A DNA stretch of 64,000 nucleotides. It comes from an uncultured Bacilli bacterium. Its GTDB lineage: Bacteria; Bacillota_I; Bacilli_A; RF39; UBA660. Shown here piece by piece: positions 3,302 through 54,793 of this stretch; the stretch's first letter is position 1; each line of letters starts with the position of its first letter. The stretch spans positions 1,303-65,302 of the forward strand of contig CANRCV010000003.1 in assembly GCA_947629205.1 (NCBI GenBank), in the 5' to 3' direction. The position numbers and the translations under genes are program-made. The notes under the pieces are model-generated. The model searched no databases. It saw only the letters and a program-made list of their open reading frames with translations, and was not told the origin of the DNA.

Positions 3302-5389
3302 CTAGTTTTCGTCTTCTTGTTTTTCTTCTTGTTCGTCTCCTATATCAAGACCTGGTATTTCAGGAACAGTAGGATTGGTTTCTTGGTTTTCCTCTTCCTT
3401 GTTTTCCTCTTTATTTTCTTCTTCTGTTGGAGCACCAGGAATCGTTTCTGTTTCATTTGGAGTTTCTTCGTTTTGATTGTCGTTGTTATTTTCTTCTTGA
3501 TTTTCTGTAGTATTACATACTTGATTGACAAAAATGGTAATACTTGAAACACTTCGAGCAGAGGTTCCAGCAAGTATGCTTTGACTACCAATTAATCCTG
3601 GAATTCCATCACTACAAGTAAATGTGGTATTAATCGTGATATTATTATTTCTTCCCCAATCTTCGGCATAGGATACGGTACTACCAACAAAATTAGGAAC
3701 AGTGGTTTCTTTTCCACCCCCTGTAATTCCTTTTCCTATTACAGGAGATGTATATTCTTCATTATAATCATAAGAGAAAGTTTTAATCATTTCTTCTTCT
3801 TTAATTCCTAAATTCACTTGTAAGGCATCTTCAATCGCTTTTAAACTATTATCATAGTATCCTAAAGCAGAAAGAGTAAGTCCACTTATGGAAACAGGTA
3901 AGTTATAAACCTCTAAATACGTTTTTTGAATATTAACAAAATCATTACCATGTAAACTTTGAACCAACATATTTTTTAATGTATCATAAAAAGAAAGAAT
4001 TTGATTGGTAGATAAGTTCGTTGCAATATTTTTACCAATAACATTTAATAAATTTTCAAAATTATTAAAACTACTTACAGTGAGTATTTTTTTAGCTAAT
4101 GCTTCTACTATTTGTTGTTGATGACGATTTCTAGCTAAATCACTTTCTAAAAAACCATGACGATTTCTTGCATAAGCAAGTGTTTGTTCTCCATTTAAAT
4201 GTTGCATACCTGTATCCATACAAACAAGATTATGAGTGCTTCTTAAAGAGTTACTTTCACATAATTTTCCTTCTCCATACTCTCTTACATAAGCTTTATA
4301 ATCAGGTTGTTCTACCTCTACATCAATTCCCCCTAAAGCATTTACTAAATCAATAACACCATTAAAATTAATTTTTGCATAATAATCTATTTCGACATCT
4401 ACTAAGTTTTGAATGGTATTAATAACACATTCTGTTCCATAAGCAGCAGAGGAATTAATTTTATGATAACGATTATTATTACAAGCAATAGGAACATATA
4501 GATCTCTTGGGAAACTAACCATAGTGGCATTAAGCGTTTGTGGATTAAAAGTAATTAACATGAGAGTATCTCCATTAAATGCAGCATTGGCATTTAAACC
4601 ATCTTTTTCGGAGTCTACTCCCATTAATAGAACTGTAAAAGGTTCTGTTAGTTTTTTATTCGTATTCAAATTACTTTTGGTTTTCATTTGTTCACTATAT
4701 TCATATAAAATTTTCGTTTCTTCTCCAATATTTTGATATGTTTCTTCACTACCAAATAAAATAACATAATTACTCGAAACAAAAATAGCATCAACCTCTT
4801 TTGTATAAAGAGCATTTAACATAGAATAATAATCATCATAATAAACAATTTTTTGAGTTAAACCTTCTTTATTTCGTAGGGTATTGGCTAAGCTGTAGCC
4901 TTCTATATCTTCATTATTAGCAATCATTCCAATTTGACTATCTAAAGTAAGTTCTGTATCTTTTAAAGCAATTAAATTGGTTGTATATAAAGTATATTCT
5001 TGATTTGTAAATAATCCAATTTTATTATAAAAATGATGAATAGTAATTGATGCAAAAGTCATGATACCTAGTAATAGAAATTGAATAAAGGTAAAAAGTA
5101 AAAATTTTTTAATTTGATTCGTCACTAAGTTTGATAATCCAAATAAAAAATAAATAAAAAACCAAATTAAAAATAATAGAAAAATAATAATTCTTAAAAT
5201 TGTTTCAATTCCTTCTAATTTAAATAGGAAGATAGAAAAAAAGATAAATCCTATTAAATAGAAAAGAAGGGATAATATATAAATCGTTAAAGCAATTTTA
5301 TTAGAACGTTTAATTTTTTTAAATAGTATTTTCATTTTCTTATCCTTTCTCATTTTATTATTATATAATAAAAGAATAGGGTTATACAA
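3302..5389 (-). CDS. LCP (LytR-CpsA-Psr) family glycopolymer-to-peptidoglycan ligase with long acidic C-terminal low-complexity tail
   Basis: N-terminal TM segments. LCP core sequence TVLLMGVDSE...NGDTLMLITFNP...VSFPRDLYV. The last ~100 aa are E/N/K-rich. Confidence 0.8.
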   Translation of the reverse strand: MYNPILLLYNNKMRKDKKMKILFKKIKRSNKIALTIYILSLLFYLIGFIFFSIFLFKLEGIETILRIIIFLLFLIWFFIYFLFGLSNLVTNQIKKFLLFTFIQFLLLGIMTFASITIHHFYNKIGLFTNQEYTLYTTNLIALKDTELTLDSQIGMIANNEDIEGYSLANTLRNKEGLTQKIVYYDDYYSMLNALYTKEVDAIFVSSNYVILFGSEETYQNIGEETKILYEYSEQMKTKSNLNTNKKLTEPFTVLLMGVDSEKDGLNANAAFNGDTLMLITFNPQTLNATMVSFPRDLYVPIACNNNRYHKINSSAAYGTECVINTIQNLVDVEIDYYAKINFNGVIDLVNALGGIDVEVEQPDYKAYVREYGEGKLCESNSLRSTHNLVCMDTGMQHLNGEQTLAYARNRHGFLESDLARNRHQQQIVEALAKKILTVSSFNNFENLLNVIGKNIATNLSTNQILSFYDTLKNMLVQSLHGNDFVNIQKTYLEVYNLPVSISGLTLSALGYYDNSLKAIEDALQVNLGIKEEEMIKTFSYDYNEEYTSPVIGKGITGGGKETTVPNFVGSTVSYAEDWGRNNNITINTTFTCSDGIPGLIGSQSILAGTSARSVSSITIFVNQVCNTTENQEENNNDNQNEETPNETETIPGAPTEEENKEENKEEENQETNPTVPEIPGLDIGDEQEEKQEDEN

Positions 5390-5490: not shown

Positions 5491-7242
5491 ATGAAAAAAA
5501 GAGTAAAATTGTTTTTGAAAAAATCTTTTTCTATTCTTTTCATTTGTTTGATAACTTTCTCTTCTATATTTCCTTTTTCTAAAGTTTTAGCAGAACAAAC
5601 TTATATAGGAAAAGTAAATGGTAATGACGTACGTTTACGTTCAAAACCAACAACTGCAAAAGAAAATAATGTTAGTAATATTTTAATGGAATTAGATATA
5701 GGAGATGTTGTAACTGTCCTTTCTATGACTCGTGAAAGTGGAAGTGGTTGTAGTAATGGTTGGTACCATGTTAGTTATCAAAATATTACTGGATATATTT
5801 GTTCTTCTTATATTAGTATTGATGGATATGATGTTTATGATAGACCTTGGACAAGTCCAAAAAAAGCTATTATTGGTGGAGCAAAGTTTATAAGTGGTTC
5901 TTATATTTCTCGTGGTCAATTTACTAGTTATTTAAAAAAATATAATGTAAATCCTAATGGATATTATGATGTTTATAATCACTTGTATATGTCTAATATT
6001 GCTGCTCCTTCTAGTGAAGCCAAAACAAGTTATACAGCTTATTCTAAAAATGGATTATTAAATTTACCTTTATCTTTTAATATCCCTATTTATGAAAATA
6101 TGCAAGAGGTTTATAATCGACCTGGAAGTAATTTAGTTACCGTTGAAAAACAAACGAATGTAACCGATCAAAATTTTGAAAATGCCTTAAATGCCCAAGG
6201 TTTTCCAGAACCTTATAAACAAGCTTTAAGAGCTGTACACACAAAACATCCAAATTGGACATTTACTGCTATGAAAACAGGACTTGATTTTACGGAAGCT
6301 GCTCAAACATTTAAAAATATTGGAGCCATGCAAGGGGGAGACAAATATTATGATTTGAGTAGTGGTTCTAAAGTACAAGCTGGAAATGATTCTGGATGGT
6401 ATATTCCTAATTTAGCTACTACCGAATATTATTTAGATCCAAGAAACTTTTTAGTTGATCAATACATATTACAATTTGAAAGTTTAGAAAATTCTTCTAA
6501 TTATACAGAAAGTACTGTTCAAAGTATATTAGATAATACCTTTATGAGTGGACTATCCATTTTAGATAATCAATCTTATGCATCAATTTTTATTGAAGCT
6601 GGAAAAGTTGCTAATGTTAGTAGTGTTTATCTTGCTTCTTTAGCAAGACAAGAATCTGGTACGAATGGTGGATTTACGACAAATGGTTCTCAATTTGAAT
6701 ATAATGGTGTTATTTATTCTGGTCTTTATAATTTCTATAATATTGGAGCTTCTAGTGGAGCAAGTAATCCTGCTAAAGCTGGTTTAGTGTATGCTAGTGG
6801 TGGTATTTGTACGACTTGTACACTTTCATCTACTGGAGGATCTAGTTTAAATCTTGCTAATTCTTTAGTAGGAAATGGATATAAATTTTCTGGTAATTAC
6901 TTTACTGGATTTAAAGAAGGAGAAAGTGCTAGTACTTTAAAAAATCAATTACAAAATTATGGAATCAATGCAACGATTAGTAGTGATACCATAGGAACAG
7001 GAACAACGATAAAATATAATAATGAGACTTATACAGTCGTTGTTTATGGAGATTTAACTGGAGATGGAAAAATCAATTCAGCGGATTTATTAAAAATGCG
7101 TCAACATTTACAAGGAACGATTTCTTTATCAGGTGCTTATAAAACAGCAGCAGCCGTTGCTAATGGTTCAACCATTAATTCAGCAGACCTATTAAAAATT
7201 AGACAACATTTATTAGGTACAAGTATAATTTCACAAGGATAG
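5491..7242 (+). CDS. secreted SH3b-domain plus GH73-like (glucosaminidase-type) cell-wall hydrolase with C-terminal type I dockerin-like repeat pair
   Basis: Signal peptide, SH3b-like segment, and LARQESG region resembling the GH73 catalytic Glu context. C-terminal DLTGDGKINSADLLKMRQHL and TINSADLLKIRQHL are EF-hand-like dockerin repeats. Good SD sequence AAGGAGGG upstream. Confidence 0.6.
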   Translation: MKKRVKLFLKKSFSILFICLITFSSIFPFSKVLAEQTYIGKVNGNDVRLRSKPTTAKENNVSNILMELDIGDVVTVLSMTRESGSGCSNGWYHVSYQNITGYICSSYISIDGYDVYDRPWTSPKKAIIGGAKFISGSYISRGQFTSYLKKYNVNPNGYYDVYNHLYMSNIAAPSSEAKTSYTAYSKNGLLNLPLSFNIPIYENMQEVYNRPGSNLVTVEKQTNVTDQNFENALNAQGFPEPYKQALRAVHTKHPNWTFTAMKTGLDFTEAAQTFKNIGAMQGGDKYYDLSSGSKVQAGNDSGWYIPNLATTEYYLDPRNFLVDQYILQFESLENSSNYTESTVQSILDNTFMSGLSILDNQSYASIFIEAGKVANVSSVYLASLARQESGTNGGFTTNGSQFEYNGVIYSGLYNFYNIGASSGASNPAKAGLVYASGGICTTCTLSSTGGSSLNLANSLVGNGYKFSGNYFTGFKEGESASTLKNQLQNYGINATISSDTIGTGTTIKYNNETYTVVVYGDLTGDGKINSADLLKMRQHLQGTISLSGAYKTAAAVANGSTINSADLLKIRQHLLGTSIISQG

Positions 7243-8624: not shown

Positions 8625-9701
8625 ATGGAAGTGAATAATATGTATGTAAATGGTCATGATGTTTTTATTATCGTCTTTATAACCTTTTTATGTAGTTTAA
8701 TTGTAACTCCAATTGTTGAACGTATTGCTTATCATGTTCATGCTATGGATTATCCTAATGAAAGAAGATTAAATAAAGTTCCAATGCCTACTTTAGGAGG
8801 ACTTGCTATTTTCTTTGCTTTTTTACTTGGTTATATGTTATATGCCAGAAGTAATGTCCAAATGCTTTCTATTTTAATGGGTAGTTTTTTACTTATCTTA
8901 ATGGGTATGATTGATGATATAAATCCTTTAAAAACACGTTATCAATTACTTGTTCAACTACTAGCTGCAGGAATTGTTACCTTTTATGGAGGTATTACTT
9001 TAAATTATATTAGTGTTTTTGGTCTTTCTTTTATTATTCCTGCTCCATGGAGTTATTTATTAACCATTATTTTAATTGTAGCGATTATTAATGCTATTAA
9101 TTTATCGGATGGATTAGATGGTTTATGTTCAGGTATTAGTTCCATTTACTTTTTAACGATTTCTATTATTGCTTTTATTATGAATTCTCAACAAGGACTA
9201 GATACAACTCTTGCCCTTATTATGCTAGGAGGTACTCTAGGATTTTTAGTTTATAACTTTCCACCTGCTCGTATTTATTTAGGAGATACGGGAAGTAATT
9301 TTATTGGTTTTATTATTGCAGTAACCACACTACTTGGTTATAAAACAGCAACCTTTACCTCCTTAATTATTCCTCTTATTATTTTAGCAACTCCTATTAT
9401 AGATGTCGCTTTATCCATTGCCAGAAGAATTTTAAAAAGACAGAATCCATTTAGTACTCCTGATAAACAACATTTTCATCATCAACTTTTAAAAATGAAA
9501 TTTTCCACGAGAGCTTCTTTACTGATTATTTATGCTATTGATCTTATTTTTGCTGGTTTATCTATTTTATATGCTTTAGGAATTACGTATTATGTTATGT
9601 TGATTTATATTGGATTAATGATTATCTTTTTATTCGTTGTATTAAAAACGGATATTTTATTTAAACATCAAAAAAAAGAAAAGAAAAGTAAAAGAGGGTA
9701 A
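8625..9701 (+). CDS. tagO: GT4/MraY-family undecaprenyl-phosphate N-acetylhexosamine-1-phosphate transferase (TagO/WecA-like priming enzyme)
   Basis: Polytopic protein with conserved DDxxP (MIDDINPL), NAINLSDGLDGL and LGDTGS motifs of the MraY/WecA family. Confidence 0.8.
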   Translation: MEVNNMYVNGHDVFIIVFITFLCSLIVTPIVERIAYHVHAMDYPNERRLNKVPMPTLGGLAIFFAFLLGYMLYARSNVQMLSILMGSFLLILMGMIDDINPLKTRYQLLVQLLAAGIVTFYGGITLNYISVFGLSFIIPAPWSYLLTIILIVAIINAINLSDGLDGLCSGISSIYFLTISIIAFIMNSQQGLDTTLALIMLGGTLGFLVYNFPPARIYLGDTGSNFIGFIIAVTTLLGYKTATFTSLIIPLIILATPIIDVALSIARRILKRQNPFSTPDKQHFHHQLLKMKFSTRASLLIIYAIDLIFAGLSILYALGITYYVMLIYIGLMIIFLFVVLKTDILFKHQKKEKKSKRG

Positions 9702-12056: not shown

Positions 12057-12503
12057 ATGAATAGTTTAAAAATAATATTAAAAATTATTTTAATCGGTTT
12101 TTTTATTTTCGTAATTACTCGATTTTATCAAATTGGTATTGTTTTTGGTCATTCTATGGAACCAACTTTAAAACCATATCATTTGCTTGTAATTCAAAAA
12201 TTTCATTTTAATATTGAAGCAAATGATATTGTGATTATCAAAAAAAAGAATCAGTATATGATTAAAAGAGTTATTGGATTACCAAATGATGAGGTGCAAA
12301 TAAAAGAGTATCCTTATATTAATGGGAACCAATTTGATAATGTATGGATAGAAAATCCAGGTGAAATAACAGAGGTTTTGTTAAAAGAAAACGAATACTT
12401 TGTTTTAGGAGACAATCGACAAAATAGTATTGATAGTCGTTTTTCACAAATTGGAATTATTGAAAGAAAAGAGATTATTGGTAAAGTATTAGGAAGGAAG
12501 TAA
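12057..12503 (+). CDS. lepB: signal peptidase I (S26 family)
   Basis: 148 aa with an N-terminal TM segment. Catalytic Ser box GHSMEPT, Lys box IKRVIGLPND, and GDNRQNSIDSR. Confidence 0.85.
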   Translation: MNSLKIILKIILIGFFIFVITRFYQIGIVFGHSMEPTLKPYHLLVIQKFHFNIEANDIVIIKKKNQYMIKRVIGLPNDEVQIKEYPYINGNQFDNVWIENPGEITEVLLKENEYFVLGDNRQNSIDSRFSQIGIIERKEIIGKVLGRK

Positions 12504-12507
12504 AAAT

Positions 12508-14337
12508 ATGCAAGCAATTATGTTAGCAGCTGGAATGGGGAAAAGACTAGGAAAATATACAAAAGATAATACAAAATGTATGTTAGAAATTAATGGCAAA
12601 ACATTAATTGAAAGAGCAATTGAAGCTCTAATTGACTCCGGGGGGGGGGTTACAAAGTTAATAATTGTTACTGGATATAAAGGAGAAAATTTAAAAAAAT
12701 TTTTATTAGAAGAATGTAAAAATGAAAAAATAAAACAACTACCTTTGGAATTTATTGATAATCCAGAATATAATAAAACTAATAATATATATTCTTTGTA
12801 TTTAGCAAAAGAAGCATTAGAAAAAGATGATACAATTCTTTTAGAATCTGATTTAATCTATGATGGAAAACTTATTAAAAAGTTAATAGAATCTCCTGAG
12901 AAAAATTTGGTTTCTGTTGCTAAATATAAACAATGGATGGATGGAACCGTTATTAAAGTTGATGATCAACAAAATGTAATTGAATTTATTGAAAAGAAAA
13001 ATTTTAATTATGAAGAAATAGAAAATTATTATAAAACGGTTAATATTTATAAATTAAGTAAAGAATTTTCCCATCAAGTTTTTATTCCTTTTTTAAAAAG
13101 TTATATTCAAGCCTATGGTAATAATGAGTACTATGAATTAGTATTAAAAATTATTGCCCATTTATCCCGTAGTCAATTAAAAGCATTGGATGTATCAAAC
13201 ATTCTTTGGTATGAGATAGATGATGCACAAGATTATGATATTGCTACTTGTATGTTTTCAAGCGGTAAAGAAAAACTAGAAAATTTTCAAAAACGATATG
13301 GTGGTTACTGGAGATTTGAAAATATATTAGATTATTGCTATTTAGTAAATCCTTATTATCCACCAAAACAATTAATGGAGAAAATAAATTATTTTTCCAA
13401 CAATTTAATTACACAATATCCTTCTGGTCAAAAAATTGAATGTATTAATGCAAGTCGTTTATTTAATGTAGATGAAAATTATTTATGTGTTGGGAATGGA
13501 GCTGCTGAATTAATTAATATTTTAGGAAATATTTTAAAAGGAAAAATGTATGTTCCAAAAACAGCATTTAATGAATATATTCGTTGTTTTAAAAATAATG
13601 AATTTACTTTATTTGATATGGAAAAAAATAATTTTCAATATGATTTACAAGATATTAAGAAAAATATCTCTTTGAATGAGATTATTTGTTTAGTAAATCC
13701 TGATAATCCTTCCGGAACATTTTTATCTTTTGAAGAAATAATTTCTATTTTAGAACAATGTAAAAAAGAAAATAAAATAGTTATTTTTGATGAATCATTT
13801 ATTGATTTTGTTAATCCAAATAAAAGATATACTTTATTACAAAATGAAATTTTAGAAAAATATCAAAATTTAATTGTAATTAAAAGTATTAGTAAATCTT
13901 ATGGCATTCCTGGTTTAAGATTAGGTATTTTGGCAACAAGCAATCTATCATTAATGGAAGAAATAAAAAGAAATATTTCGATATGGAATATTAATTCTTA
14001 TGGAGAATATTTCTTACAAATTGCTAATCTTTATAGCAAAGAATATATAAAATCTTGTGATAAAATTGCTATAGAAAGAGATCGCTTTATGGAAGAGTTA
14101 TCTAAAATTAATGGTGTAATTGTTTATCCATCTGAAGCAAATTATGTTTTGTGTAAATTAAAAAATTATAACTCAACAAAATTAGCCATTCAATTGTTAG
14201 ATCAAAATATTTTTATTAAAGATTTAAGAACAAAAAATGCATTTAATGATAAAGATTACATTCGACTTGCCATTAGAACAAAAGAAGAAAATGATGTTTT
14301 GGTTCGTGAAATCAAAAAATCTTTAAAGGGTGAGTAG
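12508..14337 (+). CDS. bifunctional LicC-like nucleotidyltransferase (N-term) / class I-II PLP-dependent aminotransferase or decarboxylase (HisC/CobD-like, C-term); contains an in-frame G10 tract
   Basis: N-terminal MQAIMLAAGMGKRLG matches the NTP-transferase G-rich loop. The C-terminal half has the PLP-lysine context SKSYGIPGLRLGIL. The tract at 12640-12649 encodes GGG. Confidence 0.7.
   Translation: MQAIMLAAGMGKRLGKYTKDNTKCMLEINGKTLIERAIEALIDSGGGVTKLIIVTGYKGENLKKFLLEECKNEKIKQLPLEFIDNPEYNKTNNIYSLYLAKEALEKDDTILLESDLIYDGKLIKKLIESPEKNLVSVAKYKQWMDGTVIKVDDQQNVIEFIEKKNFNYEEIENYYKTVNIYKLSKEFSHQVFIPFLKSYIQAYGNNEYYELVLKIIAHLSRSQLKALDVSNILWYEIDDAQDYDIATCMFSSGKEKLENFQKRYGGYWRFENILDYCYLVNPYYPPKQLMEKINYFSNNLITQYPSGQKIECINASRLFNVDENYLCVGNGAAELINILGNILKGKMYVPKTAFNEYIRCFKNNEFTLFDMEKNNFQYDLQDIKKNISLNEIICLVNPDNPSGTFLSFEEIISILEQCKKENKIVIFDESFIDFVNPNKRYTLLQNEILEKYQNLIVIKSISKSYGIPGLRLGILATSNLSLMEEIKRNISIWNINSYGEYFLQIANLYSKEYIKSCDKIAIERDRFMEELSKINGVIVYPSEANYVLCKLKNYNSTKLAIQLLDQNIFIKDLRTKNAFNDKDYIRLAIRTKEENDVLVREIKKSLKGE
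12640..12649 (+). repeat. homopolymeric G10 tract (simple sequence repeat) inside the nucleotidyltransferase domain coding region
   Basis: Counted directly: ...gactccGGGGGGGGGGttacaaag, translated DSGGGVTK, in frame. Confidence 0.9.
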
Positions 14338-15952
14338 TATGAAAAAATTAATTTATTCTTATATAATTACTTTTGCATTATGTTTTATGTTATTTTTATA
14401 TGAACCAATCATGATGTATGCTAATAATATTAATGATTTTTGGTTTGATTTAGGCATTGCCTTTTTTCCTTTCTTAAAATTATTTTTAGGTATTTTCATC
14501 ATAGGGGTCTTGTTATTAACTTTGCTTTATTTTTTGAATTCTAAATTATTAAAAAATAAAAATATTTTTTCTGTTTTAATTATTATTGAATTTATTTGCT
14601 TTTTAGCAACTTATATTCAAGGAAATTATTTAATTAAAGATTTACCCATTTTAGATGGTAGTGCAATTGCATGGTCTTCTTTTACTAAGGAAAATATTAT
14701 TACGCTTTTTGTTTGGCTTTTCATTATAATTCTTACAATTTTTTGTATTAAAAAAGTAAAATTAGAAAATACCTTAAAATATGCATCCTTTCTTTCTTTA
14801 GCGGTTTTTGCCATGCTTACAACCTCATTGATTTCTACTCTTATGACTACTGATGCATTAAAAAGTAAGGATGGCATTAATATTACTAATGAAAATTTAG
14901 ATACTATTTCTAACAATGATAATTTTTTAATCTTTTTAGTGGATGCAATAGATTCACAAACTTTTAATCAAATATTACAAGATAATGAGGATTATAAAAA
15001 GGTATTTGCAGATTTTACTTATTTTCCTGATACATTATCTGCATATCCATTTACAAGAGATTCTATTCCTTATATTTTATCTGGAATATGGAATAAAAAT
15101 GAACAAGAATTTAGTGACTATTCAAGTAATGCATTAAATAATTCACCATTTTTTGCAGAATTAACAAATAGAAACTATCAAATAAATTTATATGATGATG
15201 AACTAATTTGGAATGGTAAAGGTCATGATATATTGCAAAATATATCGTCAATAAAAAATTCAAATATTGATTTAACTAGCTTTTATAAACAAGAATTAAA
15301 ATATATTTTGTTTAAGTATTTACCATATAACTTAAAAAAATATTCAAGGATTGAATATATGAATTTTAATATGAGCATAGAAAAATTTAGATGGAATAAT
15401 GATTTAATTTATGAAAATTTAAAAGATAATCAAACTCTTCGTAAAGTGAATAAAAATCAATTTCAATTTGTGCATGCTGAAGGAGGACATGTACCATTTG
15501 ATTATGACAAAGATTTAAATAAGATTGAAAATGGTACATATGGTCAAAAAGTAGAAGCTTCTATTACCTTAATTAAAACTTATTTGGAACGTTTAAAAGA
15601 TAATAATAGTTATGATAATTCTAATATTATTATTATGGCTGACCATGGTTTTGCATTTGATTTGATCGATCCACGTTTCAATCCAATATTACTAATTAAA
15701 GGAAAAAATGAGCATCATGATTTAGAAATTTCAAATCTTCCTATTTCCTATGAAGATTTGCAATCTGCTTACATTGATTTATTAGATAATAAAAAAAGTG
15801 ATGAATTATTTGCAAATATTCCAGAAAAAAGAACTAGAAAACTGATATGGTATATATATGGAAGAGAAAACCATATGGTAGAATTTGAAACAAATGACAA
15901 AGCTTACGAATCGAATAAATATAAAGCAACAGGGAATATATATGATAGGTAG
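14330..15952 (+). CDS. LtaS/sulfatase (alkaline-phosphatase superfamily) membrane enzyme, phospho-headgroup transferase-like
   Basis: 5 N-terminal TM segments followed by an extracellular domain with LIFLVDAIDSQTF, HAEGGHVPFDYD and IIIMADHGFAF motifs. 8-nt overlap with the upstream gene. Confidence 0.65.
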   Translation: MSSMKKLIYSYIITFALCFMLFLYEPIMMYANNINDFWFDLGIAFFPFLKLFLGIFIIGVLLLTLLYFLNSKLLKNKNIFSVLIIIEFICFLATYIQGNYLIKDLPILDGSAIAWSSFTKENIITLFVWLFIIILTIFCIKKVKLENTLKYASFLSLAVFAMLTTSLISTLMTTDALKSKDGINITNENLDTISNNDNFLIFLVDAIDSQTFNQILQDNEDYKKVFADFTYFPDTLSAYPFTRDSIPYILSGIWNKNEQEFSDYSSNALNNSPFFAELTNRNYQINLYDDELIWNGKGHDILQNISSIKNSNIDLTSFYKQELKYILFKYLPYNLKKYSRIEYMNFNMSIEKFRWNNDLIYENLKDNQTLRKVNKNQFQFVHAEGGHVPFDYDKDLNKIENGTYGQKVEASITLIKTYLERLKDNNSYDNSNIIIMADHGFAFDLIDPRFNPILLIKGKNEHHDLEISNLPISYEDLQSAYIDLLDNKKSDELFANIPEKRTRKLIWYIYGRENHMVEFETNDKAYESNKYKATGNIYDR

Positions 15953-15960
15953 GTGCGAAT

Positions 15961-18024
15961 ATGTTTATAGTTGATATTTTAGGAAACTTAATGCGTATTT
16001 TTTATAATTTGTTTCATAATTATGGACTAGCCATTTTACTATTTACTTTGTTTAGTAAAATTATTTTGCTTCCTATATCTGTATGGGTACAAAAAAATTC
16101 TATAAAAATGGTAAAAATGCAACCCAGTATAAATCGAATTAAGATAAATTATTTTGGTGATAAAGATAAAATAGCAGAGGAAGAATCGATTTTATATCAT
16201 AAAGAAAAATATAATGCCTTTGCATCATTAATACCATTAATCATTCAAATTGGATTATTATTATGTTTAGTAGAAGTAATTAATCATCCTTTAACTTATC
16301 TTTTAAATACTCCAAAAGAAACAACTCAACAATTAACCAATATTATGGTTGAACAAAGAGGCTCAAATCCTGAATCTTCCTCTTTAGAAATTGAGGTTGT
16401 CAAAGAGATAAAAAAAGAGAATCAACAAAATATTTTTTCTACTGTTGAAAATCATGAAGCAATAGAAGAACAAGTCAAAAATTTAAACTTTAATTTTTTA
16501 GGATTTGATTTAACTTGGATTGCCGTTGTGGAACAACATTTATCTATTTGGGTACCAATACTTGCTGGATTAAGTGCTTTATTTATGTGCTTTGCTCAAA
16601 ATAAAATCAATGTTTTGCAACAAGAACAATCTAATTGGAATAAATATGGAATGCTTATTTTTTCTGTTGGATTATCTTTATATTTAGGTGCTTTTGTTCC
16701 AGCAGGTGTTGCTCTTTACTGGATTTATAGTAATTTATTTGCTGTTTTACAACAATGGCTTTTAAATTTATGGATTAACCCGAAAAAATATATAGATTAT
16801 AAAGAATTAGAAACAACAAATGAAGAATTAAAGGCATTAAAAGAAATTAAAAATAAAAATAAATTAACAAAAGAAGAAAGAAAAAAAGCAAAAAACGATT
16901 ATAAAAGATTTTTTAAAGTCGTTAATAAGCATTTGGTTTTCTATTCAGAAAGTAATGGCTTTTATAAATATTATAAGGGGATAATTGAATATTTATTAAA
17001 AAATACAAATATAGTTATTCATTATATTACAAGTGATTATCATGATCAAATATTTGATTTAGAAAAAGAAAACCACCAAATCAAAGCTTATTTTATTGAT
17101 GAAAAAAGATTAATTACTTTGATGATGAAAATAGATGCTGACGTAGTAGTAATGACTATGCCAGATTTACAAACCTATCATATTAAAAGAAGCTATTTGA
17201 GAAAAGATATTGAATATATTTATATTCCTCATGGAATGGATAGTTTAAATATGACTATGCGAACGGGTTCAATGAATTATTTCGATACTATTTATACTAC
17301 AGGACCTCATCAATATGATGAAGCTATCAAAACAAATGAATACTATCATTTGAATCGCAAAATTATTAAATGGGGCTATAGTTTACTTGATGATATGCTT
17401 AGTGAATATAAAAAAGAAAATAAGAATAAAACGAAGCAAATATTAATTGCTCCTTCTTGGCAAAAAGATAATATTATAGATTTATGTTTATCTAAAATTT
17501 TAGAGAAATTAAAAGATAAAAACTATGATTGTTATATTAGACCTCATCCACAAGAAATAAGAAGGAAAAAAGATAAATTTTTGCAAATGCAAGAAGAATA
17601 TAAAAAATATCCTAATATTCATTTTGAATTAGATTTTTCAAAAAATAGTACGGTATTTAATGCAGATTTACTTATTACAGATTGGTCTGGAATTGCTTTT
17701 GAATATGCTTTTACAACGAAAAAACCGGTTGTATTTATTGATACTCCAATGAAAGTAATGAATCCAGAATATAAAAATATTAAAGTAGAGCCTTTTAATA
17801 TATGGGCAAGAAAAGAATTAGGAGAGATTGTTAAAGTAGAAGAAATAAATACTATTGACCAAAAAATAGATTATATTATAAATCATTATAAAGAATATCA
17901 AGCAAAAATTAATAAATTAACAAAAGAATCTACTTATAATTTAGGTATAAGTGGTAAAGTTGGTGCAGAATATATTATTGAAACTATACAAAAGAAAATA
18001 GAAGAAAGAAGGAATGAAAAATGA
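15961..18024 (+). CDS. fusion protein: YidC/Oxa1-like membrane insertase domain (N-term, ~280 aa) + CDP-glycerol glycerophosphotransferase (TagF/TagB family) domain (C-term)
   Basis: NYGLAILLFTLFSKIILLPI...KMQP...YHKEKYNAFASLIPLIIQ...LYWIYSNLF parallels SpoIIIJ/YidC. The C-terminal part has the TagF-family IAPSWQKDN and ITDWSGIAFEYAF...KPVVFIDTP motifs. Confidence 0.65.
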   Translation: MFIVDILGNLMRIFYNLFHNYGLAILLFTLFSKIILLPISVWVQKNSIKMVKMQPSINRIKINYFGDKDKIAEEESILYHKEKYNAFASLIPLIIQIGLLLCLVEVINHPLTYLLNTPKETTQQLTNIMVEQRGSNPESSSLEIEVVKEIKKENQQNIFSTVENHEAIEEQVKNLNFNFLGFDLTWIAVVEQHLSIWVPILAGLSALFMCFAQNKINVLQQEQSNWNKYGMLIFSVGLSLYLGAFVPAGVALYWIYSNLFAVLQQWLLNLWINPKKYIDYKELETTNEELKALKEIKNKNKLTKEERKKAKNDYKRFFKVVNKHLVFYSESNGFYKYYKGIIEYLLKNTNIVIHYITSDYHDQIFDLEKENHQIKAYFIDEKRLITLMMKIDADVVVMTMPDLQTYHIKRSYLRKDIEYIYIPHGMDSLNMTMRTGSMNYFDTIYTTGPHQYDEAIKTNEYYHLNRKIIKWGYSLLDDMLSEYKKENKNKTKQILIAPSWQKDNIIDLCLSKILEKLKDKNYDCYIRPHPQEIRRKKDKFLQMQEEYKKYPNIHFELDFSKNSTVFNADLLITDWSGIAFEYAFTTKKPVVFIDTPMKVMNPEYKNIKVEPFNIWARKELGEIVKVEEINTIDQKIDYIINHYKEYQAKINKLTKESTYNLGISGKVGAEYIIETIQKKIEERRNEK

Positions 18025-18293
18025 AAAAAATGGTAAAAGAAATTTTATTTGTAGTAGTGTTTGGAGTAAGTTTTGCATTTTTATTTAGTTTAAATGTAAA
18101 TGCTTATATTGATCCATCGGTTATGACTTATGCTATTCAAGCAGTAGCTGGTATTGTGATTGCAGTTGGAGCAGTAATAGGTATTTACTTTCGTAAAGCA
18201 AAAAAGAAGATTAGTAAGAAATTAGGAATTGATGAAAATAAAAATAAAGAAATAGAAACTGATGAAATTGTTGTAAAAAATGACAAAAAATAA
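18021..18293 (+). CDS. small membrane protein (one TM, Lys-rich tail)
   Basis: 90-aa ORF overlapping the upstream stop by 4 nt. Hydrophobic core followed by a charged tail. Confidence 0.4.
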   Translation: MKKMVKEILFVVVFGVSFAFLFSLNVNAYIDPSVMTYAIQAVAGIVIAVGAVIGIYFRKAKKKISKKLGIDENKNKEIETDEIVVKNDKK

Positions 18294-18378: not shown

Positions 18379-18407
18379 CTTGATTTTCACCATTTTTTAC
18401 TTTATAA
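18379..18407 (+). promoter_or_regulatory. sigma70-type promoter of the AbiE operon (TTGATT - 17 bp - TATAAT), followed by SD AAGAGGTG
   Basis: ttgattttcaccattttttactttataat read directly. The SD sits 6-7 nt before the ATG at about 18428. Coordinates are +/-1. Confidence 0.55.
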
Positions 18408-18427
18408 TGGTAAAAAGAGGTGAAAAT

Positions 18428-19018
18428 ATGATAATTACCAATACAATTTTTAAAAATAATAATCAACAATATAGGAATCAAAATAATAAATTAACAAGGG
18501 AAGTAAAAGCAAATAAGTTGTATAAAATTATAAATGGGTTATATGAAACAGATCCAAATACACCAGGCTATTTACTTGCTGGAAGTATTTATGGTCCATC
18601 TTATATTTCTTTTGAATATGCTCTTTCCTTTTATGGTCTAATTCCAGAAAGAGTAACTGTGATTACAAATGCTACTTTTGATAAGAAAAAGAAAAAAGAG
18701 TATCATACCTCATTTGGTGTTTTTACCTATAGGGATGTTCCTAAAGAGGTTTATGCCCAAGAAATTCTTTTAAAAGTAGAAAAAAATTATTCTTATCAAA
18801 TTGCAACTCCAGAAAAAGCCTTATGTGATAAGTTATATACTTTATCTCCGCTTCATAATTATAAGAATTTAGAAATAATGCTTTTTCAAGATTTACGTAT
18901 TGATGAAGAAGAATTTAATAAACTAGATGGAAATAAAATAAAAACACTAAGCCATTTCTATCATTCAACAAATATAAATTTATTAGCAAACTATATGAGG
19001 AGAAATAAACATGAATAA
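18428..19018 (+). CDS. AbiEi-family antitoxin-like transcriptional regulator (type IV TA / abortive infection)
   Basis: The track ORF begins at an upstream TTG. The ATG with a strong SD is the likely start. The C-terminal region (GYLLAGSIYGPSYISFEYALSFYGLIPE...ATPEKALCDKLY) resembles AbiEi/COG5340. 8-nt overlap with the AbiEii gene. Confidence 0.55.
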   Translation: MIITNTIFKNNNQQYRNQNNKLTREVKANKLYKIINGLYETDPNTPGYLLAGSIYGPSYISFEYALSFYGLIPERVTVITNATFDKKKKKEYHTSFGVFTYRDVPKEVYAQEILLKVEKNYSYQIATPEKALCDKLYTLSPLHNYKNLEIMLFQDLRIDEEEFNKLDGNKIKTLSHFYHSTNINLLANYMRRNKHE

Positions 19019-19871
19019 TATTATTGAACAAATGTTAGAAAAATATGAAATCAAAAATAGTAATGATGAATTAAATGCCTTAAAAGAAATCATTCAAGAA
19101 ATTGTATTGTCAGGCTTGTCACGAAGTGGTTTTTTTGATGAGGCTGCCTTTTATGGTGGAACAGCATTAAGAATTTTTTATAATTTAAATCGTTTTTCTG
19201 AAGATTTAGATTTTGCTTTACTATCACCAAATACAAATTTTGATTTAAGTAAATATTTTATTTCTATCGAGAAAGAATTAAAAGCGTATGGTTTAAATTT
19301 AGAAATTCATCCAAAAATAAAAAATAAAGATTCTAATATTACCTCTGCTTTTCTAAAAGGGGATACTTTAGAACATATTTTAAAATTTTTCCCTAAGGAA
19401 GAAACAAGACAATTTGATCACTTACTTAAAGATATCAAAATTAAATTTGAGGTGGACATAAACCCTCCACAGGGAGCAAATTATAAGATAGAATATAAGT
19501 TATTGCCAAGTCCACATCAAATTCGTCTTTATGATAAGGAATCTTTGTTTGCTGGTAAAATCCACGCTATTTTATGTCGAAATTGGATTTCTAGAACAAA
19601 AGGTAGAGATTTATATGATTATGTATTCTTTATGGCAACAAATACAAAAGTAAATTTAGAATTATTAAAAAATAAATTAATTGAATCTAGCTATATAAAA
19701 GAAAACGAAGAGTTTGATATTGAAAAATTGAAAGGACTATTGACTAAAAAATTTCAAGAAATTAATTATAATGATGCTAAAAATGATGTATTTCCATTTA
19801 TTAAAGATGTGGATAGTCTTAAAGTATGGAATAGTGAATTTTTTATTCATATTACAGAAAAATTACAATAA
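19011..19871 (+). CDS. AbiEii/AbiGii-family nucleotidyltransferase toxin (DUF1814)
   Basis: FYGGTALRIFYNLNRFSEDLDF is the hallmark N-terminal motif of the AbiEii NTase family. 286 aa. Confidence 0.7.
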   Translation: MNNIIEQMLEKYEIKNSNDELNALKEIIQEIVLSGLSRSGFFDEAAFYGGTALRIFYNLNRFSEDLDFALLSPNTNFDLSKYFISIEKELKAYGLNLEIHPKIKNKDSNITSAFLKGDTLEHILKFFPKEETRQFDHLLKDIKIKFEVDINPPQGANYKIEYKLLPSPHQIRLYDKESLFAGKIHAILCRNWISRTKGRDLYDYVFFMATNTKVNLELLKNKLIESSYIKENEEFDIEKLKGLLTKKFQEINYNDAKNDVFPFIKDVDSLKVWNSEFFIHITEKLQ

Positions 19872-21050: not shown

Positions 21051-22361
21051 ATGAAAAGAAAAATATATGAAGATTTAATGAATTGGAAGGAAGATAATAG
21101 TTTTAAACCCTTAATTGTTTTAGGAGTAAGACAATGTGGAAAAACCTATATAATTGATGAATTTTGTAAAAATGAATTTAAAAGTTACAAAAAAATTAAT
21201 TTATTATATGATACAGATGTTATTAAATTATACACATCAAATGATCCATCAGAAAAAAAATATAATGCTTTAAAAATGTTAATTGATTTTGATTTTGACC
21301 AAGAAAATAGTGTATTATTTATTGATGAAATTCAAGAATGTGAAGAATTAATCTCTGAATTAAAATTTTTTAATGAAAAACATAGTAATGTGCGTATTAT
21401 ATGTGCAGGCTCTTTGCTTGGTGTAAAATTAGCCAGGTTTAAGAAATCGTTTCCAGTAGGAAAAATAAATATATTAAATATGTATCCTATGGATTTTGAG
21501 GAATTTATGATTGCTTTTAATCAACAACCTCTTTTAGATAAAATAAGAGAATGCTTTCAAAAAGATGAGCCAATGGGAGTTCTTCACAAAATAGCCATAG
21601 ATTATTATAAAAAATATTTATTATCAGGTGGAATGCCAGAAAGTATAAAAGCATTAATCGATTGTCAAGAAGATTATTATAATTATGATTTATCAAAGTT
21701 AGATAATATTATTGAAGGCTATAAAAATGATATGAGTCATCATGTTACTAATTCAAACGAAACTTTAAAAATTAGAAATATTTATAGTTCTTTACCTTCA
21801 CAACTTCAAAATGTATCTAAAAAATTCCAATATTCTGTTATTAATACAGAAGCCAAATCAAGAGAGTATGCTTTACCTTTACATTGGTTAGTAGAAAGTG
21901 AAATGGTTCAAATTTGTAAATGTGTTAAATTACCAGAAATACCTTTATTAGGTTTTGTAGATAACGAGGTTTTTAAAGTTTACTATTCAGATGTTGGCGT
22001 TTTTAATCGATTAGTCAATAATAATGCAAAAACAATTCTTCTTGATGATATGAAAATATATAAAGGCATTATTACTGAAAATTATGTTGCAAATCAGTTA
22101 GCTGCTAAGGAAATTGATTTATTGTATTGGAAAGGCAAAAGAGATGCTGAGGTTGATTTCTTAATTACAACTGCAAATGATGGAGTTATTCCTATTGAGG
22201 TGAAAGCAGAAGAGCATACACAATCCAAAAGTTTAAAAATATATGATGAATTATACCATCCAAACTATATGATTAGAATTAGTTCTAAAGATTTTGGTTT
22301 TGCTAATAATATTAAATCAGTTCCATTATATGCTGTTTTTTGTATTGATTCAATACTATAA
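21051..22361 (+). CDS. AAA+ ATPase of the AAA_14/DUF4143 family (ATP-binding protein, function unknown)
   Basis: Walker A GVRQCGKTY, Walker B VLFIDEIQ, and a C-terminal DUF4143-like region. SD AGGAGA upstream. Confidence 0.7.
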   Translation: MKRKIYEDLMNWKEDNSFKPLIVLGVRQCGKTYIIDEFCKNEFKSYKKINLLYDTDVIKLYTSNDPSEKKYNALKMLIDFDFDQENSVLFIDEIQECEELISELKFFNEKHSNVRIICAGSLLGVKLARFKKSFPVGKINILNMYPMDFEEFMIAFNQQPLLDKIRECFQKDEPMGVLHKIAIDYYKKYLLSGGMPESIKALIDCQEDYYNYDLSKLDNIIEGYKNDMSHHVTNSNETLKIRNIYSSLPSQLQNVSKKFQYSVINTEAKSREYALPLHWLVESEMVQICKCVKLPEIPLLGFVDNEVFKVYYSDVGVFNRLVNNNAKTILLDDMKIYKGIITENYVANQLAAKEIDLLYWKGKRDAEVDFLITTANDGVIPIEVKAEEHTQSKSLKIYDELYHPNYMIRISSKDFGFANNIKSVPLYAVFCIDSIL

Positions 22362-23701: not shown

Positions 23702-23718
23702 AATAATAGGTGATTTCA

Positions 23719-25041
23719 ATGAAAAGAAAAATATATCAAGAATTATTGAATTGGAAAGAAGGAAAAATAGAGAATAAACCTTTGATGCTTTTAGGAGTAA
23801 GGCAATGTGGTAAAACTTATATTATTGAAGAATTTTGTAAAAATGAATTTAAATATGCTAAGACGATCAATTTGTTAAGTGATACAAATGTTATAGAATT
23901 ATATCGAAGTAATCTTACATCTGATGAAAAATATGTTCAATTGAAATTAATCATTAATTTTGATTTGGATAAAGAAGATTCTGTTCTTTTTATTGATGAA
24001 ATTCAAGAATGCGAAGAATTAATTGCTGAATTAAAATATTTTTGTGAAAAGCATAATAATGTTCACATTATTTGTGCTGGTTCTTTACTAGGAGTGAAAT
24101 TAAATCGCCTGAAATCATCTTTTCCCGTTGGAAAAGTGTGGATACAATATTTATATCCAATGGATTTCGAAGAATTTTTAATGGCATATAAACAAGAAAA
24201 TTTAATTGATTATATTAAAGAATGTTTTAATAAAAATAAGGCATTAAGTGAACCTTTACATCAAAAACTAATAATGCTTTATAGAACCTATTTAATTACT
24301 GGAGGAATGCCAGAGAGCATTAAAAATATGATAATCAATGAAGATGATTATATAAAATATAATAAAAATATTTTACAAAGTATTTTAATTGCTTATATAA
24401 ATGATATGCAAAAACATGTTTTAAATGAACAAGAATCTTTTAAAATAGAAGCTATTTATAAGTCACTTCCTTCTCAATTAATGAATATTTCAAAAAAATT
24501 TCAATATTCAAATGTTTCAAAAAATGCAAGAGCAAGAGATTATGAAACAGCTATTCATTGGTTAGAAAATAGTAATTTAGTTATTAAATGTAGAAATATA
24601 CGATTACCTGAAATTCCTTTGGAAGGCTTTGCTGAAGAAGATGTATTTAAACTCTATTTAAGTGATGTAGGGGTTCTTAATAAATTATTGATAATCAAAA
24701 TGGAAGATATTTTAACGAATAAAAATTTTATATACAAAGGAATTATTGCGGAAAACTTTGTTGCCAATCAATTAGTTGCTAATAATATTCCACTATATTA
24801 TTGGAAAAATGGGGATGGTACTGCAGAGGTAGATTTTTTAATTGATACAAAAGATGGTATAATTCCCATTGAGGTAAAAGCTTCCAATAATACGCAATCC
24901 AAAAGTTTAAAAGTATATATGGATAAATACAAACCAAAATATGCAATAAGAATAAGTAGCAAAAATTTTGGTTATAATGAAAAAACCAATGTTAAATCTA
25001 TTCCACTTTATGCTACATTTTTAATTAAAGAAATTGTATAG
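23719..25041 (+). CDS. AAA+ ATPase of the AAA_14/DUF4143 family, paralog of 21051-22361
   Basis: Track ORF starts at GTG 23710. The ATG at 23719 aligns with the paralog start MKRKIY. Same Walker A/B motifs. About 55% identity to the first copy by eye. Confidence 0.7.
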   Translation: MKRKIYQELLNWKEGKIENKPLMLLGVRQCGKTYIIEEFCKNEFKYAKTINLLSDTNVIELYRSNLTSDEKYVQLKLIINFDLDKEDSVLFIDEIQECEELIAELKYFCEKHNNVHIICAGSLLGVKLNRLKSSFPVGKVWIQYLYPMDFEEFLMAYKQENLIDYIKECFNKNKALSEPLHQKLIMLYRTYLITGGMPESIKNMIINEDDYIKYNKNILQSILIAYINDMQKHVLNEQESFKIEAIYKSLPSQLMNISKKFQYSNVSKNARARDYETAIHWLENSNLVIKCRNIRLPEIPLEGFAEEDVFKLYLSDVGVLNKLLIIKMEDILTNKNFIYKGIIAENFVANQLVANNIPLYYWKNGDGTAEVDFLIDTKDGIIPIEVKASNNTQSKSLKVYMDKYKPKYAIRISSKNFGYNEKTNVKSIPLYATFLIKEIV

Positions 25042-54791: not shown

Positions 54792-54793
54792 TT

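Follow-up and report, generated by a model that had tools for sequence, protein, structure and literature searches.

A cytidylyltransferase fused to a CobD-like PLP domain as a candidate switchable source of CDP-ethanolamine for envelope decoration in an uncultured Bacilli bacterium

How might a bacterium supply the activated head group for a phospho-amine decoration of its cell envelope? This question is raised by a 64,000-nucleotide stretch of DNA from an uncultured Bacilli bacterium (contig CANRCV010000003.1, positions 1,303 to 65,302; hereafter the window), in which one gene at 12508..14337 (+) encodes a bifunctional 609-amino-acid (aa) protein with a cytidylyltransferase domain and a pyridoxal 5'-phosphate (PLP) decarboxylase-like domain. 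We hold with moderate confidence that this fusion protein is a two-step enzyme, which would convert phosphoserine to cytidine diphosphate (CDP)-ethanolamine for a switchable phospho-amine decoration of the envelope. Below, we describe the two halves of the protein, weigh what else they might do and place the gene among its neighbours, in the window and in related loci.

Architecture of the fusion gene

An original prediction, made from the DNA letters and a list of open reading frames (ORFs), had described the 609-aa ORF as a LicC-like cytidylyltransferase joined to a class I/II PLP enzyme. We recovered the ORF at the same coordinates with the corresponding Pfam domains (NTP_transf_3/NTP_transferase at aa 3-168; Aminotran_1_2, PF00155, at aa 282-602, E 1.4e-37) and both quoted motifs, AAGMGKRLG at aa 7-15 and SKSYGIPGLRLG at aa 462-473. 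The N-terminal LicC/PntC-like cytidylyltransferase domain covers aa 1-246 (12508..13245, +) and the C-terminal CobD/SMUL_1544-like PLP domain aa 260-609 (13285..14334, +), with the codon of the Schiff-base Lys463 at 13894-13896 (+). An in-frame run of ten G had been noticed near codon 45. This G10 tract lies at 12640..12649 (+), where it fills codons 45-47 (GGG GGG GGG) and the first base of codon 48; at a length of ten the gene is in frame.

The next gene does encode a membrane protein with a Sulfatase-family domain, as had been proposed (PF00884, 28.8 bits vs a cut-off of 25). The proposed overlap of 8 nucleotides (nt) between the two genes did not hold up, as it needs GTG 14330 as the start codon, whereas the database-called start is ATG 14339 (P0241, 537 aa). 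Because GTG 14330 sits inside a Shine-Dalgarno-like sequence, aaaggGTGAG, just 5' of ATG 14339, the overlap is probably an ORF-calling artefact, and the real gap would be 1 nt after the TAG stop codon of the fusion gene. A scan for promoters and terminators was uninformative in the AT-rich window DNA (58 sites vs 65 expected).

The nucleotidyltransferase half

The nucleotidyltransferase (NTase) half has the fold and the G-x-G-x-R P-loop of LicC-type enzymes (AAGMGKRLG), and both PF12804 and PF00483 score above their cut-offs. Its best sequence matches in the PDB were PntC of Treponema denticola (6pd1, E 1.7e-12) and LicC (1jyk, 2e-10), followed by weaker matches to a Thermotoga nucleotidyltransferase (4jd0), an inositol-phosphate cytidylyltransferase (2xme) and several sugar-phosphate nucleotidyltransferases. 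As the two closest solved relatives, PntC and LicC, are both cytidylyltransferases, the NTase half presumably uses cytidine triphosphate (CTP). Residue conservation, assessed here and below in 80 fusion homologues, showed G9, R13, E113, D115, Y208, Y209, E210, W234, E236 and D238 to be invariant in all 80.

The fusion protein and PntC share the motif LLESDLIYD, and Glu113 of the fusion occupies the position of PntC Glu104. In PntC, Glu104 and Glu196 contact the primary amine of 2-aminoethylphosphonate (AEP) (Rice et al. 2019, PMC6697681). LicC has the smaller Asp at the positions of PntC Glu104 and Glu196, together with a larger pocket for choline (PMC6697681), whereas the fusion family shares the Glu of PntC at Glu113. 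Since Glu113 is invariant and AEP is an isostere of ethanolamine phosphate, the likely substrate of the NTase half is a small primary phospho-amine.

The PLP half resembles decarboxylases

Is the PLP half a decarboxylase or an aminotransferase? Among the NCBIfam models, CobD came first on the fusion protein (TIGR01140, 176.9 bits, cut-off 290.55) and HisC second (TIGR01141, 162.2 bits, cut-off 276.55). Because both scores are well under the curated cut-offs, we place the PLP half, on sequence grounds, in a separate clade. Its best PDB sequence match was SMUL_1544 (6oux; 140 bits, E 1e-39, 31% identity), the L-serine O-phosphate decarboxylase of norcobamide synthesis. Further matches were 3ftb (120 bits), CobD (1lc5; 90 bits, 26% identity) and the best HisC (83 bits). 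The score of CobD against SMUL_1544, 79 bits, is no higher than that of CobD against HisC, so the fusion PLP domain appears to lie near two separate decarboxylase lineages. Structure comparison gave a similar ranking: when the PLP half of an AlphaFold model of the fusion (predicted local distance difference test, pLDDT, 78.8) was searched with Foldseek, CobD came first (TMt 0.76), then 3ftb and 6oux, and every HisC structure ranked lower (TMt 0.67-0.72).

We then looked at signature residues in an alignment with CobD, SMUL_1544 and 3ftb on one side and the HisC proteins of E. coli, a plant and Ralstonia on the other, using E. coli HisC numbering. HisC Tyr187 (DEAY), the hydrogen-bond partner of PLP O3' in HisC structures and the ligand of class I aminotransferases, corresponds to Phe431 of the fusion. 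HisC Tyr243 (PYP/PYN motif) corresponds to Trp493, the Glu of the HisC NENP motif to Val280 and HisC Met112 (YGMY motif) to Glu356. Phe431, Trp493 and Glu356 were found in 80/80 homologues and Val280 in 79/80, with Thr in the remaining one. CobD and 3ftb have the fusion state at all four positions, while SMUL_1544 has the Phe and Trp in common with the fusion and Ser, not the HisC residue, at the other two. Lys463, Asp428, Asn400, Arg471 and Arg586 are fixed among the 80 homologues. The fusion has the CobD-type residues, namely the Schiff-base Lys, the Phe after DE(A/S) and the Trp of a P/I-W-x-x-N motif. SMUL_1544 (6oux) and CobD (1lc5), the closest characterised relatives of the PLP half, likewise keep the Lys, Asp, Asn and Arg set, the Phe in DE(S/A)F and the Trp in W-N/S-I/V-N.

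Sequence, HMM (hidden Markov model), fold and signature residues all agree, albeit over a small reference set, and point to a decarboxylase; they back the CobD-like identity that had been proposed for this half. In these comparisons, the PLP half groups with the decarboxylases and neither with HisC nor with the class V AEP transaminase. Together, the domain and structure searches of both halves describe a phospho-alcohol cytidylyltransferase with a CobD-like PLP domain attached. A further PDB entry, 3fkd from Porphyromonas gingivalis, is deposited as an L-threonine-O-3-phosphate decarboxylase; it has His at the position of the Schiff-base Lys (SFSHAYGIPGLR) and for that reason was not used as a reference decarboxylase.

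A housekeeping role as HisC or CobD was ruled out by gene context and by the sub-threshold HMM scores. SMUL_1544 and CobD are stand-alone enzymes of cobamide nucleotide-loop synthesis, whereas the fusion PLP domain is linked to an NTase and encoded in a cell-envelope context. No cobamide genes were found among the window ORFs scanned, and the surroundings of the PLP domain are those of a glycopolymer locus.

A proposed route to CDP-ethanolamine

The route that we propose builds on domain identities, conserved catalytic residues, signature residues, gene co-occurrence and the pattern of G tracts, all of which were obtained directly. The C-terminal PLP domain would yield ethanolamine phosphate by decarboxylating a phospho-amino acid, of which L-serine O-phosphate is the likeliest, and the N-terminal domain would join this product with CTP to give CDP-ethanolamine. 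Such a de novo route would require neither imported ethanolamine nor phosphatidylethanolamine. The CDP donor would be used at the cytoplasmic face by a TagF-like domain encoded two genes downstream, or in many genomes by LicD instead, and the phospho-amine would finally be found on a cell-envelope polymer or carrier. A membrane enzyme of alkaline phosphatase (AP) type, an S26 peptidase and a 90-aa protein, all encoded next to the fusion gene, would act later and outside the membrane. Slippage in the G10 tract at codon 45 would leave a truncated protein of ~50 aa and turn the donor supply off. The substrates, the product, the acceptor, the order of the steps and actual switching are what we infer from the observations listed above.

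There is a precedent for the first step, as Cj1436 of Campylobacter jejuni decarboxylates phosphoserine for glycan decoration (PMC11800397). Compared by its description, Cj1436 is a CobD/HisC-family PLP enzyme that provides ethanolamine phosphate for a glycan, and its gene belongs to a capsule locus with poly-G phase variation, a trait proposed here for the fusion gene. It differs in being unfused and in serving capsule amidation by an ATP-dependent amide ligase, with no activation by CTP.

Several points weigh against the proposed route. The CobD model reaches 177 bits where its cut-off is 290, and the HisC model is likewise sub-threshold. The decarboxylase signature is drawn from just three decarboxylase-type and three HisC references. 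In the NTase half, the position of PntC Glu196 aligns with Tyr209 of the fusion, not with a Glu. Sequence does not separate the use of serine phosphate from that of threonine phosphate, nor an ethanolamine-phosphate from an aminopropanol-phosphate product. Two of the 80 loci (L058 and L059) put the fusion gene beside Ppm and Ppd genes, where an AEP-making aminotransferase would be expected. Variants of the fusion gene with other tract lengths were absent from two metagenome scans (with exact and with degenerate flanks), and homopolymer assembly errors could be the source of two out-of-frame genes in the window. Lastly, co-occurrence and the known topology of YidC are the sole basis for the proposed acceptor and for the role given to the TagF-like domain.

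One alternative is that the PLP domain is an aminotransferase, making AEP from phosphonoacetaldehyde or serinol phosphate from dihydroxyacetone phosphate (DHAP), so that the NTase would produce CMP-AEP or CDP-serinol. Its model is Tde1415, the PntC-AEPT protein of Treponema denticola (6pd1/6pd2, PMC6697681). Like the fusion, Tde1415 is a single chain of ~610 aa, in which a C-terminal fold-type I PLP domain supplies the N-terminal LicC-like NTase with its amine substrate, the role that we propose for the PLP domain of the fusion. It shares LLESDLIYD, is the closest relative of the NTase half and the best whole-chain Foldseek match (E 2e-26), and feeds LicD-type tailoring of the cell surface. 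Its own PLP domain, however, belongs to the class V transaminases and works on phosphonoacetaldehyde, whereas that of the fusion is of class I/II, CobD-like and equipped with decarboxylase-type residues, and at the sequence level the match to 6pd1 is limited to aa 2-246. Its product, CMP-AEP, is a phosphonate, whereas a phosphate ester, CDP-X, would be expected in the window, which lacks Ppm and Ppd genes. The phosphoenolpyruvate (PEP) mutase (Ppm) motif EDKxxxxxNS does not occur in any frame of the 64-kb window, and a phosphonate pathway was rejected there on these grounds; the motif is also missing from 78/80 loci. The aminotransferase alternative can further point to the HisC model, just 15 bits under the CobD model, to Cj1437 as a precedent for serinol phosphate from DHAP, and to L058/L059, where a CyTase-Ppm fusion and Ppd come after the fusion gene and no further aminotransferase was seen in the fragment. 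Against this, the Ppm of L059 has its own cytidylyltransferase domain, and that cluster may make two activated head groups. All 80 family members, L059 included, lack HisC Tyr187 and have the decarboxylase residue at the three other signature positions. We therefore consider an aminotransferase unlikely.

A second alternative keeps the decarboxylase and changes its substrate. A CobD-type L-threonine-O-3-phosphate decarboxylase would lead to CDP-(R)-1-aminopropan-2-ol and to a decoration with aminopropanol phosphate. CobD is both the best NCBIfam model (TIGR01140) and the best structural match of the PLP half, and the F-x-E-Y motif is common to the fusion family, CobD and 3ftb, where SMUL_1544 has F-S-S-Y. 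Yet by sequence the PLP half matches SMUL_1544, which acts on serine phosphate, better than CobD (140 vs 90 bits), no recurrent kinase that would supply threonine phosphate was found among the annotated neighbour clusters, and phosphoserine is a universal metabolite. We know of no glycan with an aminopropanol-phosphate substituent, while phosphoethanolamine is common. Use of threonine phosphate thus seems rather improbable, and we retain phosphoserine as the presumed substrate.

Gene neighbours of the fusion family

If the fusion enzyme makes a CDP donor, genes for enzymes that use such donors might be found beside it. In 78 loci, we sorted into clusters the genes up to four places away from the fusion gene in either direction. 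LicD was the commonest neighbour (26/78 loci, usually directly upstream), followed by OCD/mu-crystallin (20/78, usually directly downstream), a YidC-TagF fusion (14/78, position varies), an octopine-type dehydrogenase (9/78, usually directly downstream) and a transmembrane (TM) sulfatase-type enzyme (8/78, position varies). LicD and YidC-TagF are nearly mutually exclusive beside the fusion gene, with 26 vs 14 loci and both present in 1. Where the TM-sulfatase-type gene adjoins the fusion gene, YidC-TagF is present too (8/8 loci, never without). Because LicD and TagF-like enzymes both use CDP-alcohol donors, these counts support a fusion enzyme that makes such a donor, and they back the CDP-donor logic of the original prediction.

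In the Lic pathway (LicC/LicD), as in the proposed route, a phospho-amino-alcohol is activated with CTP and handed to LicD. The difference is in the origin of the head group, which is imported choline phosphorylated by a kinase in the Lic pathway and would be made de novo by decarboxylation here. The lic genes are phase-variable in Haemophilus. Use of CDP-ethanolamine has been demonstrated for one member of the LicD family (PMC11982090).

In 29 of the 78 loci, a gene for an imine-reducing dehydrogenase of the OCD/mu-crystallin or octopine type lies directly 3' of the fusion gene (e.g., L012 9809..10714 and L043 9808..10905). This suggests that organisms with those loci turn the primary amine into an N-(carboxyalkyl) derivative, comparable to the carboxyethyl-aminoethyl phosphate reported in Proteus O-antigens. 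The window has no dehydrogenase gene of either type. In the Spirochaetaceae loci L059 (6087..10803) and L058 (1430..4719), a C11-C12 tract, a CTP_transf_like-Ppm fusion and Ppd come after the fusion gene, an arrangement that links the fusion family to a phosphonate cluster. The C tract of L059 lies inside a read-through C-terminal extension (PPPP).

Poly-G tracts and switching

The position of the G10 tract had led to the suggestion that the whole pathway is phase-switchable. Runs of at least nine G slip at high rates. The window contains eight G9-G11 tracts, all with G on the + strand, where 0.0015 runs of nine or more would be expected (G 14.5%, 64 kb); G runs of 6-8 do not occur within it, and the eight tracts have mutually unrelated flanks. 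The tracts lie in the fusion gene, an MBOAT gene, three acyltransferase-3 genes, a GT8 gene, a GT2 gene and one gene whose family is unknown.

All eight genes are intact at exactly G10. Besides the fusion gene, five carry an in-frame G10 between 40542 and 48780 (+), beginning at 40542 (acyltransferase-3), 41557 (GT8), 44392 (acyltransferase-3), 46713 (GT2) and 48771 (acyltransferase-3). The other two genes are one base off. In the MBOAT gene, a G11 tract at 34969..34979 (C11 on the coding strand, gene on the - strand) leaves 300 aa, where ten would give 419 aa (34602..35861). A G9 tract at 51286..51294 (+) splits one gene into ORFs 50854..51330 and 51354..51830, which would be a single 325-aa ORF at G10. 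This pattern fits contingency switching, and with eight tracts and two genes out of frame it lends support to the idea of a switchable pathway.

In the fusion gene, a tract of G9 or G12 would give a product of 50-51 aa. A restart at TTG 12632, with a 567-aa product at G8 or G11, was set aside as it has no supporting ribosome-binding site. The two residues that the tract adds to a loop (xA--G to xSGGG) are lineage-specific and confined to a small clade. The resulting Gly3 is missing in ~95% of fusion homologues, and sister lineages have SEKP or SRGE. An orthologue with 75% identity (L001) has G10 at the same site, whereas in L081/L082 the site is interrupted by a synonymous G-to-A change (GGGGGAGGGG). 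Elsewhere in the family, homopolymers are found at other positions: G9 in the inter-domain linker (FSDGGGNY) of L037 at 8736, G11 at 7984 in L064, in the Shine-Dalgarno position 6 nt upstream of the start codon, and a G/C run at the 3' end of the fusion gene in L058/L059.

Could the G10 tract be a mere Gly-Gly-Gly loop with no switch, the two out-of-frame genes being homopolymer errors of the assembly? The absence of length variants from both metagenome scans is what one would then expect. In both assemblies that carry the tract it is in frame at G10, and one relative encodes the same peptide from an interrupted tract. On the other side stand the number of tracts against chance expectation, the lack of shorter runs and the unrelated flanks. 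All eight tracts are in genes for surface-glycan modification. The Gly3 insertion is missing from most homologues, and sister lineages have decayed versions of it, SEKP or SRGE. Other lineages, moreover, have tracts of their own in this gene, at its Shine-Dalgarno site, in the linker or at the 3' end. We give little credence to the loop without a switch and keep to a putatively switchable fusion gene.

A recurring five-gene cassette

In the window, the fusion gene is the second of five genes at 12057..18293. The first encodes an S26 signal peptidase I (12057..12503, +; Peptidase_S26 91.6 bits; TIGR02227 106.5 vs a cut-off of 47). The fusion gene is followed by genes for a membrane AP/sulfatase-superfamily enzyme of LtaS/EptA/PbgA-type architecture (14339..15952, +; the AP-type enzyme), for a YidC domain (aa 21-269) fused to a TagF-like domain (aa 320-594) (15961..18024, +; PF02096 105 bits, PF04464 35.8) and for a 90-aa membrane protein (18021..18293, +), whose start overlaps the YidC-TagF stop by 4 nt. 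All five genes are also found in L001 and L084/L085, and four of the five in L081 and L083. Their order varies among loci and their membership is constant. The S26 homologue adjoins the fusion gene in five loci, all with YidC-TagF and the TM-sulfatase-type gene, and is present in L084/L085 as well. In L084/L085, the genes stand isolated beside EPSP_synthase (MurA-type), POTRA_1 (FtsQ-type) and LCP genes with no glycosyltransferase cluster. These five genes are a recurring, previously undescribed cassette.

The AP-type enzyme was predicted by AlphaFold (AF2, pLDDT 89.4) to have helices at aa 2-28, 34-70, 74-96, 112-140 and 142-170, followed by the catalytic domain. Foldseek matched it to sulfatases, PbgA/YejM and MCR-1, full-length to PbgA and MCR-1, with TMq of only 0.32-0.42. 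No match at the sequence level to solved LtaS/EptA-type members was found, nor a close structural likeness to LtaS/EptA. Invariant in 32 sequences are D202, T239 (PFTRDS), H379, H384 and D435-H436, to which roles can be given by analogy only; the Cys/Ser-x-Pro-x-Arg formylglycine motif is absent. The enzyme shares with LtaS, EptA, MCR-1 and PbgA the five TM helices, an AP-type domain that is predicted to face outward and, by analogy, the Thr plus Asp-His metal-ligand pattern. It differs from them in its low TM-scores and in that its gene is tied to the YidC-TagF fusion.

The original prediction had cast this LtaS-like enzyme as the taker of the CDP derivative. In the LtaS/EptA/MCR-1/PbgA architecture the domain lies outside, characterised members use lipid donors and CDP-alcohols stay in the cytoplasm. 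Given five N-terminal TM helices and such an outward-facing domain, the AP-type enzyme is unlikely to take the CDP donor directly. That it should itself pass the CDP-activated head group to the polymer is very improbable: gene adjacency with a spacing of 1 nt, co-occurrence with the fusion gene in 8 loci and a phospho-head-group-transferase fold with invariant Thr239 and D435-H436 speak for it, but the modelled topology and the lipid donors of its relatives speak against it, and its gene is never beside the fusion gene without YidC-TagF, which points to dependence on YidC-TagF.

A better candidate is the TagF-like domain (PF04464, 35.8 bits vs a gathering cut-off of 22.1). It follows the last YidC helix, and by the known topology of YidC it should be cytoplasmic, where the CDP donor would be. 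By this analogy, the TagF-like domain of YidC-TagF is probably the user of the CDP donor in the window genome. YidC-TagF has 7080 homologues at E<=1e-20, and the best 120 listed are 63-100% identical and named only 'membrane protein insertase YidC'. Of these 120, 24 come from contigs whose lengths also occur among the 120 top homologues of the NTase-PLP fusion.

The 90-aa protein is the most conserved member of the cassette, above its enzyme neighbours. It has a variable signal peptide with an AxA-type cleavage site, a mature start YIDPSVMTY, one TM helix and a Lys-rich tail, and YIDPSV is its invariant mature N-terminus across the loci compared. Homologues lie at L001 11409..11696, L081 7116..7388, L084 11043..11303 and L083 7683..7976, and a six-frame motif search found the protein solely in loci that carry YidC-TagF. 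Its role might be that of carrier, acceptor or subunit. One scheme, which we regard as speculative and doubtful, is a relay over the five genes: the TagF-like domain would load the head group on a lipid or small-protein carrier, the YidC groove would bring it outside and the AP-type enzyme would pass it to a wall polymer. The logic of such a relay would parallel Dlt D-alanylation with its small DltX, and genomes with LicD would then use a simpler cytoplasmic route; these parallels are as tentative as the relay.

Distribution and significance of the family

The fusion architecture is very common. A word-index search returned at least 8000 proteins, counted as clusters at 90% identity, of which the best 120 listed are at least 65% identical, and at 50% identity there are 637 representatives with E<=1e-30. 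Most of the 150 representatives listed have ~600 aa and match nearly the whole query, down to 30% identity. The best 120 homologues listed carry the database name 'aminotransferase class I/II' only. The metagenome-assembled genomes (MAGs) with a fusion gene are labelled as Clostridia, Bacilli, Bacteroidota, Spirochaetota, Lentisphaerota and others. The nearest cassette loci, L001, L003, L005 and L057, are labelled as Muribaculaceae or Candidatus Saccharibacteria MAGs, and L001 has a GC content of 28.6%. These contigs are probably misbinned, and the taxon labels of homologues need caution.

If the proposed route is correct, many gut, rumen and oral bacteria would make CDP-ethanolamine from a central metabolite, given a family that extends over Bacillota, Bacteroidota and Spirochaetota. 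Their zwitterionic surface decoration would then depend neither on ethanolamine from the host nor on phosphatidylethanolamine from the membrane. Decorations of this type influence how well cells resist cationic peptides, how phages adsorb and whether pentraxins and antibodies of the host recognise the surface. The analysis also exposes two large families behind the database names 'aminotransferase class I/II' and 'YidC', and it defines a five-gene cassette that can be tested directly. In addition, the window would be a case of a Campylobacter-style poly-G switching pattern over eight surface-glycan genes in a low-GC Gram-positive organism. In the searchable literature, which largely leaves out subscription journals, we found no description of an NTase-CobD-like fusion, a YidC-TagF fusion, the five-gene cassette or bacterial de novo synthesis of CDP-ethanolamine.

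The surrounding locus

Judged by its gene content, the window resembles a wall glycopolymer locus that depends on an ABC transporter. It has a WecA/TagO-like initiator (8625..9701), a TagG/TagH-like exporter (25106..26606) and an LCP ligase (3302..5389, -), along with many glycosyltransferases, GtrA-GT2 and predicted membrane proteins with no assigned function (DUF6056, DUF2142).

Two LicD-family genes had been counted as part of the pathway. Both are present, at 37101..37916 (+; PF04991 161 bits, with a weak match to the Mf1 model) and 52938..53738 (-; PF04991 168.6 bits), but their tie to the fusion gene found no support, as they lie 23-40 kb away and the second stands beside a separate system of an IspD/TarI-like cytidylyltransferase and an SDR (54081..55840). 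This second cytidylyltransferase system stands in the way of attributing either LicD gene to the fusion enzyme. The LicD protein of 37101..37916 is a possible alternative user of the CDP donor.

Directly after the cassette come a gene with no Pfam domain, an AbiEii-family toxin gene and two AAA_14/DUF4143 ATPase genes (18380..19871, 21051..22361 and 23710..25041). The presence of AbiEii and AAA_14/DUF4143 genes among glycan genes suggests mobile or defence-related insertions. At the other end, a hint of a cellulosome-type or gut fibre-degrading, Clostridia-like host comes from 5491..7242, just upstream of the glycan locus, which encodes a protein that combines SH3_3 and type I dockerin domains.

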